Both the position numbers and the translations under genes were made by a program. A DNA stretch of 53,739 nt, counting the filler, from Dirinaria sp. TL-2023a (lineage: Eukaryota), in the NCBI GenBank assembly GCA_051941275.1. It is 4 parts of 4 records of this genome, joined end to end, with 100 filler letters (N's around TTAATTAATTAA, not from the genome) between each part and the next. Parts side by side here need not be neighbours in the genome. Positions count along the whole stretch, not along the records: positions 26,925 to 40,282 come from JAVEBF010000696.1; 3 more parts are not named here. One strand, written 5' to 3'. The notes beneath the pieces were generated by a model. It had not been told where the DNA came from. It saw nothing but the letters and a program-made list of their open reading frames with translations, and did not search any database. Shown in pieces: positions 27,965 through 49,221 of this stretch (position 1 is its first letter; the number at the start of each line of letters is the position of its first letter).

Positions 27965-29474
27965 CTAGCGTCGGATATGAGGATGTCCAAGTTGTCGGAT
28001 GTGAGCCCGCCTTATCTTGGAGCTGCTACTGCACTTCCCAAAGGCTGACTGGCACCCAGTGCCGCAGTAGTCCTCCGAGGTGCCGCAATATCCATGCGAG
28101 GAACAGCACATGCCCGTTGCGCAGCTGAGCCCGCCGTTGCTTCCGCAAGTATCGACCGAGCCTCCGCTATTTCCAGAAGATGAGGATGGGGAGGAGGATT
28201 TGGGGGATGAATAGGCCATCGGGCTGGCTGCCGGAGCTGAAGCCATTGGCGCTGGAGAGGAGTCATCAGATGTTTTCCCGGACGAAGACGCCGTCACACC
28301 CGGGCTGCTGAGCATGGAAGGCTTGGCCGGCATGTAGCTTGCTGCGGACGGAGGGCCCTTGGCGCTACCTTTGCAGGAAGCTTGGACACTGTCGCAGTAA
28401 TCCTCCCAGTTGTGGCAATTTTTGCTGCCTGTGGGACCGGCAGAATCGTAACAAGTCTTCGCTTGCGCCCAGCAATTCGAAGACGCCTTCCAACACGCGT
28501 CGGCGTCGGAGTAGCTGGGCAGCGTCATACCGCACCAATTATCGTTTTCCATGATACAGCCAGCGGGCTTGAGGCCGATGGTCTGCTCAGCCGGGGAATC
28601 GCGAACATCGAGATCGCGCTTGGAGCTGCCGGTGTAGGTTGGAGGGCCAAATTGTGGGAAAGGCAACTTCATAGGCTGATTCCAGATATTGAAAGTCATA
28701 GCTGGGTCGGTCATATGGACATAGCCTGGAATGGAGACTGTGTCTTTGGGCGCCGCTGTGCCGGTCGACTTTAAGAAGATCTGAGCACAACCGACGTAGA
28801 ATTGCGGATCCGGTGGGCTCTTATCAGCTTGGTGCAAGGCGAGGAGCTCGGGGCGCACCAGGTAGTATCCCCCGGCAAGGTCTTTCGGTATGTTGACAGA
28901 TAGGTGACCATCGTTGGGAATCAGTTTCTCGGTACACCATTTACCAGCGGCGCTGTCATAATCCTCTTCGAAGATCTTGAACCATCCATCTCCGGTTGCG
29001 GTATCGGTGACGGCGTTGTCAACCTTCTTCATGTAGACCGAGCAAGGACCCTTATGGCTGGTGTCGATGGAGCCTGGCTGGCTTCCATCAGGCCAGTCAC
29101 GCCACTCAAACGTCAGCTGAGAGCCTGCATTAGCTGGGCAAACACGAGCAACGCCGCTTTGGCCATTGACGCCTGGTCGATATATTAGCGAGTTACCTCA
29201 TAGGATGTGGGGGCTTGAAACAAGCAAAACCGTTGGGCAACAGCTTTTGCATGCGGAGGGCAGCAGACGTACCACATGCCATGTCATTGCTGGTAACGGC
29301 TCCGATGGGTCGAATAGGAAATGTGGCTTGGTCAATGTTATCGCTCATGCGAACGCAGGTACCGTCGCCTTGAGGGACATTATCGACGAAAAAGTTAGTA
29401 AAAGCTGTGTGAGCGTTGACGGCCCCAGTAGCAGCAATGACTAGCAGCACGCTGCTAATACCAGGAAGGTACAT
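27965..29474 (-). CDS. Secreted AA9 lytic polysaccharide monooxygenase + Cys-rich module + Ser/Pro linker + CBM18 (hevein-like chitin-binding); intron 29272-29173
   Basis: Signal peptide MYLPGISSVLLVIAATGAVNA followed by His1 (HTAF), second His in SHKGP, ELLALH...PQFYVGCAQI motif; C-terminal CGSNGGLSCATGMCCSSHGYCGTSEDYCGTGCQSAFGKC has the CBM18 cysteine pattern. Confidence 0.9.
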
Positions 29475-32355: not shown

Positions 32356-32605
32356 GAGCGCATGAAAAGAAAGGAGAGCGCTCCGATGCAGTCACAATAT
32401 AAATCTTCCGTCTTCTAAGCCATGTCAGAAGTGGGGACTTTTTACAAAGTTGCCTGGAAGTGGTACGAGTACCATAGCCGCGCGGTGGACCCTCGGCAAA
32501 ACCTTGTTGCGGCGCAAACTTCATGAAAAATCAAAATCTTGAGGTTCTTATGCGTACTGCAACAACCAGCTGGCAAGCGTCATCAGTCCTTCGAGTGCAG
32601 CAGAG

Positions 32606-33076
32606 ATGAGTGTATTATGACTAGTAACTCATTATGCGGATTACAAACTAATAAGGTTCTAGTTCGTACCGCTGAATCCGCGGCCTATGCTACAGTCACT
32701 GTACTTCTATCCTCCCGAGTCATGGATATGTATGCTTACAGCCACTGCAGAGTCAATGACGAAGTCATAGTGCGACTGAAATGGGGTCAGACGGAATATA
32801 AGGGAAGATTGATCAGCGTGGACTCTTATATGAACATTCAATTGGCGAACACCGAGGAGTTCATTGACGGGAAGAGCACCGGGGCATTGGGCCAAGTGCT
32901 GATACGGTTTGTCATCTTCAATACCCTGTGCCATGCGCATTTGAAAGACGAAAATGGATATCCGAATTCTGAGAGATTCATGGCTGATGTTTGGGCTCGA
33001 AAACAGGTGTAACAATGTACTATGGATATCTGGCGCAAAAGGGGCGAAGCAGGAAGATGCAGATATGCAGGGATGA
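32606..33076 (+). CDS. SMF: Small nuclear ribonucleoprotein F (SmF), multi-exon, divergent from ARP3
   Basis: [89 protein letters not shown]; Sm1 and Sm2 motifs. Confidence 0.93.
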
Positions 33077-33689
33077 AAGTGATAACCAAAACACGTTTAC
33101 ACTGGGGCCTAAGAGTTTGCAAGAGAGTGACCATAGCATGGGGCTCCCTAAACTATTCTTGGCGAGCAACAACTCGAGCCGCCAATCTAATCTATCAGAA
33201 CTGTCCAGCTACGATTGTTAGACAGCATCCCGAAGAAAGCAGTGATAACTGGCTGGGCTACTGTGAACATAGTCCTAGGCTTGTAAATACCTTTTAAAGA
33301 CCCAAAATCAAGTCAAAAGCGAAATTTCATACCTGTTCTCACACATTGAAGACATGGGTCTTCAAGTAGTCCATAAAGGTGTGTTCTTTGGATCATATTA
33401 TTCGAAAGTTCTCCTGAATTTTCCTCGGGGCAAAAGTCACGTGCCAGCGCGTGGGTAAAATTGCGCTAAGAACACCCCCGCGCGTCTACTGCACGACAGT
33501 ATTTCGTCCCAGCCTCCCTGGCTCCCTTCATTCTCTTTCCCTTTCTACACACCACACTTTGCGCGCCTCTTCAGCAATTTTCGCTCAATGAACTTCAATG
33601 GGATATGTCATAATCAACTCTGACCCGACCAATAGCTGCAAACTAACTCGCCAACTTCCACAGCCCCCGAAGTCCAAATACTCGATGGC

Positions 33690-36121
33690 AGTGCATCTTC
33701 TTGACCCGGTTCCTCTCCCCTTCCGATCTCTCGCTCTTCAGGAGCACTACACAGAAAAAGCAGCGCACCTTCCCCACAGTCTCCCGAAGCTCATCTTCCG
33801 GCCTCGCGCAGGAATGTTTCAACGCCCCTCGCACACACCTGCGGCTCAATTCTAGGCGTCATTTCTCGAGCCTCATGGCACGGTCTCACATGAAATTTGG
33901 CAAGTCTAAATTGCGTACGCTGCGAATCGAAAGCTTCGTAAAGGGTAGTGCGAGGAGGATGAGTTTCGGAACTTAACCCTAAGTTTTCGTCGGTCTTCGT
34001 CTCGCGTTCATAGCTGTCAAGATCCTTATTAGCTTTTCCGTGTTCTCATCCTTCTACCTTAGCTCTAGATGGGGAGACGAGGAGGAGTGAAAGGGACCTC
34101 TGACGTCCAGAGTCTTTTAGACGGTGATTGAACGTTCTATGCGCCGGAATTGGTCAGACCTCCTTTGGAGGCGCGCGTCAGTCTGTTCTACTGGACATCA
34201 TGCTCTAGTCATTTATGGATTTTTTGTTGATGCAAAGCGTCGTGCAGCCAAATTGGAAGACAGCAGGTGGAATATGTCAGACACCTTTACATGAGGACCG
34301 TCTTTGGGAGCCCTGAAAAGCTGGTCATTGCAGGCGACTTTGTGGATCTTGTTGTGGATCTTCTTTTCTTTGCGAAGCCGATTATGATTCTTTTCTGCGT
34401 CGTCGAGCGCAGGCGGTTTCCGCCTTCCACCATTCCTCGCACTGCACTGCTAGTGTTTTCTCAAGAGCCCATTCTGTTATTTGGGCGTACCTAGGGCTAA
34501 GAGCATGTTGGAGTGCTCAGCACACTTGCCTACATACGGGCCGTTAGATTCTGTATGCTTCAGGCTTAGGCATAAGTCGTAGCCAAAGCGGAGATCCATT
34601 CGCCGGCACCTGTGTCTGCACAGACACCGCAATGTCTCTAATCCAGAATGCAAAGCGAGGTCTCTTAGCGCACAACAGAGGTTTACAAGGACTACGGCTG
34701 CTCCGCTTGTCTCTATTGTCACAGATAGGACAACGCAGAGTTCTTGGCACAGCATCACGCTCTTCGAGGCCCCAAGTCGCTTAGAAAGCAAATGAGCATT
34801 GAGGAAACGCGAAACAGCTGTCGTGGTCAACGGATGGCTTTATCGTCTGCATCAACACTCTTCGCTTCTCCAGAATGTGGATCGGCCGAGCAAGGGACTG
34901 GCTTTTAGCTATCAAGATAGACACTGTGGTCTGTTTGGCCAGCAAGCTGTCCCGTACCTATTCCCTACACATAGTGCCCATCGCTGGCAATGGAACCTGC
35001 TGTCCAATCCTCACTGGACCCTGCTCGCTCACCAAAACTGCATCACGGCACCCGCCACAGGTGCAGAAGGCTTGCCTTGTTCCGACTAGACGCGTTAGTC
35101 ACCTCCTTGTATGCACGTCATACAAGACGACTGGTGAGCGCCGACTTCTCATCCTGCTATCAGCCTCTGGGTTGGTGGCAGGATACACATACCTCCCGCG
35201 TGGAGATGGAAGCGGTTTTTGAGGATGTTTTTTGTCCGCTTACAATGCCTTCCGCTGCTTTTGCCGTTTTGGCGATATTGGTGGAAAGGAAACAAAGACT
35301 AGTCTCTGAGGGTACTGCACTACATTCAGAGAGGTTATCTTTCCCAACTGGGGTTTTGGGGGGAGAGACTTCAAGATGAAACGCTCGAGCTGAGGGCAAA
35401 TGTTTCGGAAGGTTGTGAGTGGTCAGGAGTTTCACTGGTGGAAGGACGGTCAGTAACTCTGAGGAACCATATGCAACTGAACAAGTTGATGGGGGGCGCT
35501 TGAGGCATTGCAAGTGTGGTGTCAACCTCTTGCACGAAAGCCCGCTGGCAATGCAACAGAGCTATAGTGCCAGCCTCCTCCTAGCTGACTCCGGAGCTAT
35601 TGCAGTCTTCCAGCTCTAAGGCATCCAGCCCCCAGAGTCTTCCTTTTCCCATCACTGCTTCCGGTCTCAGTTTGGCCCTCATCAATCGAAGTCACAGTGC
35701 CTTCTACTGCGTTTACCGGGTTGGGCCGAGCTGAGGCCTATCAGCCCCAGAGACAGGACCTCTCTCGAGTGAGGATCAAAGCTTAGTGCTTGTCTGCTCT
35801 CTCGGCTGCCCTCCGCGAAACCCTGCCCGGTGCTGCAGTCTCGGTCTCTGAGCCGGGTGACTGATGGGGCTGTTAGGCTGCGACCGGTGAGGAGCGGGTC
35901 AAAGGGATATTTGGCGGCAAGGACGATGCGTATAGAGTAAGATGGCTGGGACGATGCTAGGTGAGATTGGTATTGAATTGACGTTGCGTTGGGCCATAGG
36001 CGGGTGGACGTGGGAGGTGATGGTGTGATTGAGCTTGGGTGGGGAAGCAGCGGTGGAGGCGGTACAAGAGGGCCACTGTCCTTGCTTAATGAGGAGGATG
36101 GTGGCTCTACCAAATTTTTTT
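33690..36121 (+). ncRNA. TER: Putative telomerase RNA (TER), ~2.4 kb; 5' end approximate
   Basis: Template TAACCCTAA at 33974-33982 (1.5 TTAGGG repeats) preceded by hairpin gagtt-tcgg-aactt; nested 5'/3' pairings (33769-77:36039-47, 33787-93:36030-36, 33820-25:35986-91, 33846-52:35975-81); further long helices; 3' end AAATTTTTTT|ATAGGT...GCTAAC...CAG; no credible ORF over 2.4 kb. Confidence 0.8.
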
Positions 36122-36172
36122 ATAGGTGTTCCTTGTATACTTTGTTCCAAGAGATGGCTAACTACATACCAG
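36112..36172 (+). other. Putative TER 3'-processing signal: Sm-like U-tract (36112-36121), non-canonical 5' splice site ATAGGT (36122-36127), branch point GCTAAC (36157-36162), 3' splice site CAG (36170-36172)
   Basis: Read directly; 51-nt intron-sized spacing. An A-initiated 5' splice site is the known cleavage signal of Neurospora/Aspergillus TERs. Confidence 0.72.
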
Positions 36173-36811
36173 ATATGACTTGCTGATGAAGCCGAAAGGC
36201 ATGGTTGATTACAAAAGTATCTCGGGACGGTGGATGTCACCTGCTTGGATTGCGGCCTTCAAAAAGGTACAGCGATTGACGTAAAATCCTAGCTACCCTA
36301 CGCCTTCGAGTACTGTCTTGCAGATGTCGTCCAATTGAGACAGTACGTAATTACGTATGAGCTACCTTATTCCTATGCCTGATGTCAGCTGACCAGGTGC
36401 ACTCCGACTATCGGAGTCGTATGCAATAGCTAAATTACTAAGGTGAATTTTTCATTGGTGGCTTTGGAGCTGTTTATTCGATTGGTATCCGAGACTTCTA
36501 CGGACATGTGAAATCTGCAGTAGATCAAGATCGGTGGTGCCAGGCCGGATACCGCTGCTGTTTCCGGCCTAAGGTACCTTAGTAAAGGTAGTAGGCACTT
36601 CTTTGTTCTGGTGACTGGTGAGTCAGATTACCTTATCTAATCTCAAACCCCACCAAAATGCACACAGCGTAACCACCCAGACATCTACTTCACCTAAAGT
36701 TCTTTAGAGGCAAGGTGCCTTATTTCTTGGTTGAATCAAGGCTCTTTCACGAAAGATATCCCTGCAATCTTGGGTGCTCCGTTGAGAACAAGTTTCGTCG
36801 TCTCCTAAAAC

Positions 36812-48900: not shown

Positions 48901-49068
48901 AATCAGATTTCATTCCCCTGCTTATTCATCAGCCGACAATTGATTGGTCAAATGCTGCCTCATGTCAATGTTCTCAAGCTAACCCTAAAACGCTGTGAAG
49001 GCTTGAGCATGAGGAGGTCATGCCATGCTGCCAGCCTCGCCCTCGATCCATCGGCCTTTCATTATTCC

Positions 49069-49221
49069 TACTCGTACTCACCCACTTTCTTGGGAGGGTT
49101 AGGGTTATCCCACCAAGAGCCACGTAACCCTAAATAAGGTAGGGTTGAAAGAATTTTGGTGGGTGTAACCCTAACCCTCCCAAGAAAGTAGGTGACCCAA
49201 GAAAGTAGGTGAGTACGAGTA
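49069..49221. mobile_element. 153-bp foldback / MITE-like element with telomeric (TTAGGG) repeats in both arms, flanked by TA
   Basis: Left arm tactcgtactcacccactttcttgggagggttagggttatcccaccaa; right arm ttggtgggtgtaaccctaaccctcccaagaaagtaggtga(cccaagaaagtaggtga)gtacgagta is its near-perfect reverse complement with a 17-bp tandem duplication. Confidence 0.65.

Follow-up and report, generated by a model that had tools for sequence, protein, structure and literature searches.

A probable telomerase RNA gene in the interval between SmF-like and MatE genes of a Pezizomycotina fungus

What is encoded by a 2.4-kb stretch of fungal DNA that protein-based annotation leaves blank? The stretch occupies positions 33690-36121 of the plus strand in the window, i.e., the whole 53.7-kb piece of DNA analysed here. 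It is flanked by genes for an Arp3-like protein of the actin family, an SmF-like protein with an LSM domain and a MatE protein, which agrees with an earlier note that had placed it in an SmF-MATE interval. The same note had seen no credible ORF, and an ORF scan combined with a Pfam search found no coding signal in the interval: the longest ATG-initiated ORF is 129 aa, the longest stop-to-stop frame is 145 aa, and none of the seven longest frames had a Pfam match at E≤0.1 (0/7). Judging from the sequence and its comparison with homologous loci, the interval is very probably (probability about 0.93) the gene for a Pezizomycotina telomerase RNA (TER), with a predicted mature RNA of ~2.4 kb whose 3′ end would be defined by a 5′ splice site.

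33690-36121 (+): probable telomerase RNA gene (Rfam, profile search, paired elements, 3′ module)

The TER reading, first put forward in the earlier note, is supported by an Rfam match above the gathering score, four colinear nhmmer profile matches, covarying boundary and core helices with compensatory changes, a pseudoknot, a three-way junction and a terminal intron that begins with A. Sequence and comparison place these elements on the plus strand in the order known for Pezizomycotina TERs.

Homology searches

The Infernal search that the earlier note had proposed was carried out. In an Rfam scan of the whole window, RF02462 (Telomerase_Asco) was the sole family exceeding its gathering score, at 35147-35304 on the plus strand (47.4 bits versus a gathering score of 30). 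According to the structure lines of the model and the coordinates of the N. crassa fragment, this match is the pseudoknot. A second RF02462 piece at 35746-35791 (26.1 bits, E 2.3e-5) covers P6/P6.1. Matches to MIR5298, TB11Cs2H1 and IRES_Bip were dismissed, being far under their gathering scores. Restricted to the template part (33560-34460), the Rfam search gave two chance-level matches and none to TER, so homology in this part rests on nhmmer, blastn and our own pair tables.

For comparison, 15 metagenome loci were retrieved with a 26-nt pseudoknot pattern. The pattern was specific, since all 15 retrieved loci match RF02462 (12 long matches of 450-1229 bits and 3 local ones). All seven loci that match the Rfam model over its full length went into an nhmmer profile, which found four colinear matches in the window, at 33765-33818 (E 0.063, under the inclusion threshold), 33954-34013 (E 3e-9), 35079-35333 (E 8e-19) and 35725-35804 (E 8e-8). 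The nearest relatives are two short contigs, L004 and L011, with 80-91% identity over three conserved blocks. The neighbours are not part of this likeness: tblastn of five protein fragments of the Arp3-like, SmF-like and MATE proteins against the 15 TER loci gave no match, L004 and L011 being too short to be informative, and the shared neighbourhood that the earlier note had suggested looking for was common to none of the fetched loci.

Template, core and three-way junction

The elements of the template and pseudoknot regions were assigned as follows.

33760-33769 (+): core-enclosing helix 1, 5′ strand (GCAG, 3-nt loop CGC, ACC); pairs with 35311-35318
33770-33777 (+): conserved C-rich junction TTCCCCAC; unpaired in the Rfam model
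33778-33799 (+): template-boundary element, 5′ strand (AGT, loop CTC, 16-nt stem strand)
33800-33953 (+): variable arm closed by the template-boundary helix (minimum-energy fold)
33954-33973 (+): template-boundary element, 3′ strand (16-nt stem strand, bulged A, ACT)
33974-33982 (+): template 5′-UAACCCUAA-3′, 1.5 repeats, specifying TTAGGG (profile match, context)
33989-33994 (+): core-enclosing helix 2, 5′ strand (GTCGGT); pairs with 35140-35145
33995-35139 (+): variable insertion within helix 2, ~1.1 kb
35140-35145 (+): core-enclosing helix 2, 3′ strand (GCCGAC)
35147-35209 (+): two hairpins between helix 2 and the pseudoknot (Rfam model 1195-1281)
35210-35304 (+): pseudoknot (Rfam alignment, pair table)
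35210-15 with 35236-41 (+): PK1
35216-23 (+): U-rich loop TTTTTGAG
35224-35 with 35292-304 (+): PK2
35248-53 with 35283-89 (+): PK2.1
35311-35318 (+): core-enclosing helix 1, 3′ strand (GGT, A, CTGC)

The 9-mer TAACCCTAA, which had been proposed as the template, is indeed present on the plus strand at 33974-33982. The window contains five copies of it versus 0.18 expected, the other four being clustered at 48980-49174, a region with no TER features. Taken alone, the 9-mer is thus weak evidence, and the interval might be viewed as an intergenic stretch or an overlooked protein-coding gene in which a telomere-like 9-mer arose by chance. Of the readings considered here this is the least probable, and it is already contradicted by the Rfam score above gathering, the four colinear profile matches and the covarying helices, the pseudoknot and three-way junction included; no ORF is above 145 aa and no Pfam match was obtained. 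Conservation of the template, to which the earlier note had pointed as a check on the TER reading, was observed: TAACCCTAA is single-copy and in the same context (TCGGAACT before, GT after) in 12 of the 15 TER loci, and of the three loci without the standard template two are 5′-truncated and one has a variant. The 19 nt TCGGAACTTAACCCTAAGT around the template are identical to the Rfam consensus.

The 3′ strand of the template-boundary element directly abuts the template. In the window the boundary stem consists of 16 pairs, two of them G-U. The AGT/ACT pairs are retained in 13/13 sequences, and 9-12 of the first 12 stem positions are paired across sequences (12/12 in the window, 9 in L012), the sequence of the stem varying between lineages while pairing persists. 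The folding energy of the boundary arm gave a weak signal (z -1.69).

Core-enclosing helix 1 has the geometry of the Rfam model, an outer helix, a 3x1 internal loop and a 3-bp inner helix. The helix with its 3x1 loop was found in 9/9 assessable sequences (of 13), with four different outer pair sets. The assignment of helix 2 is weaker, as it was the best match in a search that had no control for chance; the complement was found in 13/13 sequences. Template and pseudoknot are 1239 nt apart in the window versus 794-921 nt in the fetched relatives. In N. crassa TER, 826 nt at the equivalent place (463-1288) can be deleted with activity retained, according to excerpts of the published study (PMC3592445).

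Pairing within the pseudoknot was observed in 98.4% of 187 cells from 11 distinct sequences, versus 43-55% in slid controls. All three PK1 pairs lying outside the search pattern (3/3) carry compensatory changes. The loop TTTTTGAG is invariant among the loci, yet it is itself part of the retrieval pattern. We infer base triples in the pseudoknot.

Downstream of the pseudoknot lies a second structured element.

35749-35800 (+): CR4/5-like three-way junction (Rfam piece, pair table)
35749-56 with 35794-800 (+): P5
35757-62 with 35771-77 (+): P6
35779-82 with 35788-91 (+): P6.1, loop UUAGU at 35783-87

A single A at 35778 separates P6 from P6.1, which reads AAGC-UUAGU-GCUU; its loop matches the NUNGN consensus given in excerpts of Qi et al. 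2013 (PMC3592445). In nine distinct sequences 98.3% of 117 junction cells are paired, versus 27-47% in slid controls, and four pairs are changed on both sides. The folding energy of the junction was uninformative (z 0.04).

Ends of the RNA and antisense transcription

The 3′ end of the gene was assigned from a composite module.

36115-36121 (+): U7 tract, predicted mature 3′ end, Sm/Lsm-like
36122-36172 (+): terminal 51-nt intron, predicted to undergo cleavage only
36122-27 (+): 5′ splice site AUAGGU
36157-63 (+): branch site GCUAACU
36170-72 (+): 3′ splice site CAG

The complete module occurs once in the 53.7-kb window, both strands included; at least one copy was found in 6 of 200 first-order Markov simulations. 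A 5′ splice site beginning with A, a branch site and YAG are present in 10 of the 12 assessable sequences, with introns of 45-51 nt. The 5′ splice site itself is a variant, AUAGGU in the window versus ATAAGT in all nine assessable module-bearing loci. The A-first sites reported for TERs are AUAAGU and AUACGU in the excerpts of PMC3603654 and PMC4299874. The earlier note had described an Sm-like U tract followed by an A-initiated donor. Both are present (36115-36127), while a canonical Sm site (AU5-6GR) is absent, the window reading A, U7, AUAGG; the U7 tract resembles the Aspergillus U7-12 tract, as excerpted from the literature, not the yeast Sm consensus. The module is 909 nt from the pseudoknot in the window versus 540-560 nt in RF02462 relatives.

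By analogy with N. crassa, Aspergillus and S. pombe, the precursor would be made by RNA polymerase II. The spliceosome would then carry out the first step only, at AUAGGU, because an A at intron position 1 would block exon ligation; in A. niger, changing this A to G yields fully spliced RNA and lowers mature TER. Cleavage would release an RNA ending in the U tract, and Sm or Lsm proteins would protect this end. TERT would make two separate contacts, one with the template-pseudoknot core and one with P6/P6.1; the boundary helix would halt reverse transcription after the template, giving TTAGGG repeats, with the 3′ UAA of the template serving for realignment.

The 5′ end of the TER is at or upstream of 33760. 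When the window was compared with the starts of four full-length TERs, L005 alone gave a notable match: GCATCTTCTTGA at 33693-33704 is identical to positions 8-19 of that RNA, a score reached by 5 of 200 shuffles. This 12-nt identity is the sole hint of the 5′ end and is not taken as mapping it. The region upstream scored 19 against L004, versus 18.5 ± 2.6 for shuffled sequence (121 of 300 shuffles reach 19). The Aspergillus promoter motif CRCGDCGCG has two matches in the window (7433 and 41582) versus 1.65 expected, and none is near the gene.

Five strictly nested helices joining the two ends of the interval had also been proposed. The strings exist, four of the five exactly where they had been placed and CATCTTCTT one base off, at 33694-33702. 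Such pairing is, however, no better than in shuffled sequence: the colinear chain of exact complements amounts to 29 bp versus 20.5 ± 6.0 (72 of 1000 shuffles reach 29), and the gain from cofolding the ends is -44.9 versus -39.7 ± 5.9 kcal/mol (reached by 35 of 200 shuffles). Shuffles pair equally well, the 5′ part being rich in C and U and the 3′ part in G. Moreover, four of the five helices conflict with conserved boundary or core helices and were rejected. The second (33769-77) shares bases with the inner core-enclosing helix and with the conserved junction, the third (33787-93) sits within the conserved template-boundary stem, and the fourth and fifth, both located in the boundary-arm loop, would have to cross the boundary stem. 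The first (33694-702 with 36091-100) is the only one free to form.

RNA data were available as strandless contigs from one lichen sample, derived from a related fungus with 90-99% identity. These contigs cover 1594 of 1827 nt (87%) of 33607-35433, 0 of 736 nt of 35434-36169 and 100% of 36170-36260. One contig joins 35433 to 36170, and the junction fits a minus-strand GT-AG intron, given one mismatch at 35434.

35435-36169 (-): putative antisense non-coding intron (GTATGT ... TTACTGAC ... CAG; RNA contig junction)

Because the junction fits a minus-strand intron, the RNA cover at the locus may derive from an antisense non-coding RNA, and the contig start at 33607 therefore cannot place the TER 5′ end. 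The stretches 33293-33606 and 36261-36600 are free of contigs, and we read no transcript ends from these holes.

The putative 735-nt antisense intron would take out precisely the segment that faces the three-way junction and the TER 3′ arm. Its 5′ splice site (36169-36164, minus strand) abuts the 3′ splice site of the TER terminal intron.

A spliced antisense non-coding RNA that overlaps the TER gene and begins near the MATE promoter is a tentative proposal, and we hold it to be rather unlikely. If true, transcription or splicing of one strand could set the amount or the processing of the precursor from the other, a regulatory layer undescribed for fungal telomerase RNA in the literature searched.

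In a stronger version, the main product of the locus would be this antisense RNA, with a promoter shared with MATE and a silent plus strand. The contig that joins 35433 to 36170 and skips a stretch bearing GTATGT, TTACTGAC and CAG on the minus strand speaks for it, as does cover of 87% and 100% beside the intron and 0% inside. Yet the junction comes from a single contig with a depth of ~3 and 22 nt on one side, and the RNA, if poly(A)-selected, as we assume, would under-sample a mature TER. An antisense transcript is also compatible with the TER reading, the two not being exclusive, and it does not account for the fact that distant fungi conserve the template, pseudoknot, P6.1 and A-first intron on the plus strand specifically. 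We regard a silent plus strand as highly improbable.

The locus could also be a TER-derived copy, either a paralogue or a pseudogene, that has lost its role in telomerase, the working gene lying elsewhere. The RNA cover, which is that of a relative, strandless and fitting an antisense RNA, would suit such a relic, and the gene exceeds all fetched relatives in length, as measured by the template-to-pseudoknot spacing. Against this, all paired elements and the 3′ module are intact, even at positions that differ by compensatory changes only; in a decaying copy, one would expect some to be disrupted. This reading appears very unlikely, if somewhat less so than a silent plus strand.

Comparison with known telomerase RNAs

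The analysis gives a functional label to the 2.4-kb stretch, and coordinates of every core TER element, in a fungus with a close relative in a lichen sample; a literature search yielded no telomerase RNA paper on lichen fungi or Lecanoromycetes among the matches listed. A standard Infernal run would have flagged the locus, because part of it already matches an Rfam model. The gene is an ordinary member of the TER family already known from filamentous fungi. Its predicted size is near the top of the known TER range and AUAGGU joins the A-first sites at TER 3′ ends; neither alters the present picture of fungal telomerase.

The N. crassa TER, 2049 nt long, was compared through excerpts of its published description (Qi et al. 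2013, PMC3592445). It has the same 9-nt template UAACCCUAA, as the earlier note had stated, and the same order of core-enclosing helices, boundary element, template, insertion, pseudoknot with PK2.1, and P6/P6.1 near the 3′ end. Its P6.1 is likewise a 4-bp stem with a 5-nt NUNGN loop, and its 3′ end is produced by spliceosomal cleavage (PMC3592445). Mutating the N. crassa template places mutant repeats at the chromosome ends. The RNA in the window would be larger, a 5′ end near 33690 giving ~2.4 kb, and the distance from P6.1 to the 3′ end is 330 nt versus ~185 nt in the 2049-nt N. crassa RNA, whose P6/6.1 spans nt 1826-1864.

According to excerpts of Kuprys et al. 2013 (PMC3603654) and Kannan et al. 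2015 (PMC4299874), Aspergillus TERs, like the window, have a long U tract abutting an A-first 5′ splice site, and their branch site GCUAACU is identical to that of the window. Their boundary element is a stable helix beside the template, as in yeasts, and the same is true of the window. In contrast, the splice site is AUAGGU in the window and AUAAGU or AUACGU in Aspergillus, and the window has neither the Aspergillus CGGC3-5 run before the U tract nor, near the gene, the proposed promoter motif.

Similar in length is the RACE-mapped TER of Mycosphaerella graminicola, 2425 nt according to an excerpted source that in 2012 called it the largest known TER, versus a predicted 2432 nt in the window if the 5′ end is near 33690. 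Infernal aligns just two domains of the RF02462 model in the window, and the 1239 nt from template to pseudoknot exceed the 794-830 nt of this group. RF02462 and the 12 metagenomic TERs with long matches to it share with the window the template context, the boundary helix, both core-enclosing helices, the pseudoknot, P6/P6.1 and the A-first intron.

Family assignment of the locus

The interval 33690-36121 (+) lies between an LSM-domain (SmF-like) gene on the left and a MatE gene on the right, and an actin-family (Arp3-like) gene is found beyond the LSM-domain gene. An earlier note had described it as devoid of credible ORFs. ATG-ORFs reach at most 129 aa and stop-to-stop frames at most 145 aa, and a Pfam search of the seven longest frames returned 0/7 matches at E<=0.1. 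The covariance-model search proposed in that note was positive: an Rfam scan of the whole window at gathering thresholds gave a single match, RF02462 (Ascomycota telomerase RNA). At permissive settings another piece of the same model was matched; three unrelated families in that scan all scored far under their thresholds.

RF02462 matches
35147-35304, +: pseudoknot, 47.4 bits vs gathering score 30
35746-35791: second piece, P6/P6.1, 26.1 bits, E 2.3e-5, permissive scan

The first match is assigned to the pseudoknot because the structure lines of RF02462, traced on a full-length relative, put the pseudoknot there, and because the N. crassa minimal-fragment coordinates given by Qi et al. 2013 (PMC3592445) agree (T-PK3, nt 225-1515 minus 256-433 and 463-1288; P6/6.1 fragment, nt 1826-1864). 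The same two lines of evidence ruled out a CR4/5 identity.

To find relatives, a 26-nt pattern taken from the core of the pseudoknot was run against a metagenome collection and yielded 15 loci. All 15 matched RF02462; for 12 of them the match was long (450-1229 bits), and for three it was local, like that of the window. Blastn of the window against these loci revealed three colinear blocks (33963-34013, 35202-35316 and 35751-35796), and a profile made with all 7 loci whose match extends over the full Rfam model gave four colinear matches in the window (E = 0.063, 3e-9, 8e-19 and 8e-8). The nearest relatives, L004 and L011 (80-91% identity within blastn blocks), are short contigs ending before the telomerase RNA (TER) 3' end. 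Given the RF02462 score, the colinear profile matches and the conserved pairing described below, we conclude, with a probability of about 0.93, that the locus is a TER gene of the known Pezizomycotina type, as had been proposed.

The Sm-family protein gene directly upstream (32527-33012, +) is on the same strand as TER, which itself has an Sm/Lsm-bound-looking 3' end. Since such a neighbour is absent from all 15 other TER loci, the adjacency is probably a coincidence. Elsewhere in the window, frame 27965-29197 (-) combines an AA9 (lytic polysaccharide monooxygenase) domain with a C-terminal chitin-recognition domain.

Pseudoknot and three-way junction

Pseudoknot elements
35210-35215 with 35236-35241: PK1
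35224-35235 with 35292-35304: PK2
35248-35289: PK2.1 hairpin, inside the downstream loop

The pseudoknot alignment comprised the window and 14 of the 15 loci (the contig of L002 ends within the search pattern). PK1 and PK2 were paired in 98.4% of 187 cells, with 11 distinct sequences, and in 43-55% when the 3' partner was slid by 1-3 columns; the search pattern had preset three PK1 pairs and most of the 5' strand of PK2, and these are uninformative. In every one of the remaining three free PK1 pairs both sides have changed. PK1 and PK2 are directly contiguous, with a U-rich loop upstream of PK2 and PK2.1 downstream, all of which matches the description of the N. crassa pseudoknot. We infer U-A-U base triples in the window pseudoknot.

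The junction's fold consists of P5 and P6, followed by a single A and P6.1. The latter, an AAGC/GCUU stem with a UUAGU loop, agrees with Qi et al. 2013 (PMC3592445), who give a 4-bp stem and a NUNGN loop for N. crassa and vertebrates, and the single A is the counterpart of an invariant adenosine cited in a review. As the loci had been picked by the pseudoknot, the junction provides a separate, independent test. In 12 of 13 available sequences (L009, omitted, has N and otherwise differs from L005 at one position of the aligned stretch), 98.3% of 117 cells were paired, with 9 distinct sequences and both-side changes in four pairs; slid controls gave 27-47%. The two unpaired cells are due to a P6 bulge offset by one position in the window and L004. 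In L004 and L011 the P6.1 loop is 4 nt, compared to 5 nt in NUNGN, and the stem has a G-U pair.

Template, boundary and enclosing helices

Template region and helices
33974-33982, +: template TAACCCTAA
33971-33973: ACT immediately 5' of the template, pairs with AGT 33778-33780
33784-33799 with 33954-33969: boundary stem, 16 bp including two G-U, adjoins the AGT/ACT pairing
33760-33769 with 35311-35318: core-enclosing helix 1, GCAG/CGC/ACC with GGT/A/CTGC
33989-33994 with 35140-35145: core-enclosing helix 2, GTCGGT with GCCGAC, at the model's position (best-match search without chance control)

The template was found on the + strand exactly where the first reading had placed it. TAACCCTAA occurs once per locus, in identical context, in 12 of the 15 loci; L010 and L015 are 5'-truncated and L014 carries AAACCCTAA. 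The L014 element (oriented position 551-560, ~916 nt upstream of its pseudoknot, context CTAAACCCTAAC) has one extra A and, judged from its sequence, would template a 7-nt TTTAGGG-type repeat, not TTAGGG.

The boundary stem is also the closing helix in the minimum-energy fold, and a boundary helix was found in 13/13 sequences, with differing stem sequences. Helix 1 has the geometry of RF02462 (outer helix, 3x1 internal loop, 3-bp inner helix) and is retained in all 9 sequences where both strands could be located, with four outer pair sets (CGCAC/GTGCG, CGCAT/ATGCG, AAAG/CTTT and GCAG/CTGC) and three inner ones.

The earlier note had also proposed five nested complementarities between the ends of the interval. 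All five string pairs exist, one a base off, but their chain and cofold energy are within shuffle range. Counted from outside, the second shares bases with both the inner enclosing helix and the conserved junction, the third occupies the 5' strand of the conserved boundary stem, and the fourth and fifth, within the boundary arm, would cross that stem. The outermost is possibly compatible with the conserved helices. The C/U-rich 5' part seems to pair with the 3' end, because GGAGGATG, present at 33954-33961, recurs at 36093-36100.

Four further TAACCCTAA copies are present at 48980-49221, two of them in arms of an inverted repeat carrying 1.5-2 telomere-like units. The Rfam scan gave no match there; an interstitial telomere-like element and the termini of a small mobile element are both conceivable explanations.

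Inverted repeat with telomere-like units
49078-49107 and 49166-49195: inverted-repeat arms, 97% complementary
49069-49094 and 49196-49221: outer inverted pair
49179-49212: 17-nt tandem duplication

Putative antisense RNA, predicted transcript ends and size

RNA contigs of a related fungus, assembled without strand information, come from one study with three runs of a single sample labelled lichen metagenome and share 90-99% identity with the window. They span 1594 of the 1827 nt in 33607-35433, all of 36170-36260 and 0/736 nt of 35434-36169. A single contig, at a depth of ~3 and with a shorter arm of 22 nt, bridges 35433 and 36170 and carries one additional letter; if this is a mismatch at 35434, the contig skips the following stretch.

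Skipped stretch
35435-36169, -: starts GTATGT, TTACTGAC 15 nt before the end, ends CAG

The spliced minus-strand RNA would have no ATG-ORF >92 aa. The simplest reading of the contigs is antisense non-coding RNA in the relative. The skipped stretch and its consensus motifs on the minus strand suggest that a spliced antisense non-coding RNA, possibly divergent from the MATE promoter, spans the TER gene. Its donor would sit immediately next to the 3' splice site of the TER terminal intron. The contigs are evidence of transcription of the locus; they neither show TER itself nor place its 5' end.

End of the interval
36115-36121: T7
36122-36127: ATAGGT
36157-36163: GCTAACT
36170-36172: CAG

The U-tract and A-initiated donor reported at this end were recovered, together with a branch site and CAG. 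This module occurs once in the whole window, both strands searched, and was seen in 6/200 first-order Markov simulations. Of the 12 sequences with sufficient length for assessment, 10 have a U-rich stretch, A-first donor, branch site and YAG, with introns of 45-51 nt; in the other two, L004 and L011, the module was not found. According to work on Aspergillus (PMC3603654, PMC4299874), A at intron position 1 is required to halt splicing after the first step. Filamentous fungal TERs are described as generally taking this route, using a distinct donor; the donor in the window reads AUAGGU, a variant absent from the consulted passages of the Aspergillus papers (PMC3603654, PMC4299874). The U tract does not fit a canonical Sm site. 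We predict that the mature RNA ends at 36121.

The 5' end can be no further downstream than 33760. The sole pointer to it, a hint from sequence identity, is a 12-nt match of 33693-33704 to the initial bases of a single full-length relative, reached by 5/200 shuffles. With a start near 33690 the predicted RNA would be 2432 nt, compared to 2049 nt in N. crassa and 2425 nt in M. graminicola; its extra length is located in the helix-2 insertion and the 3' arm.
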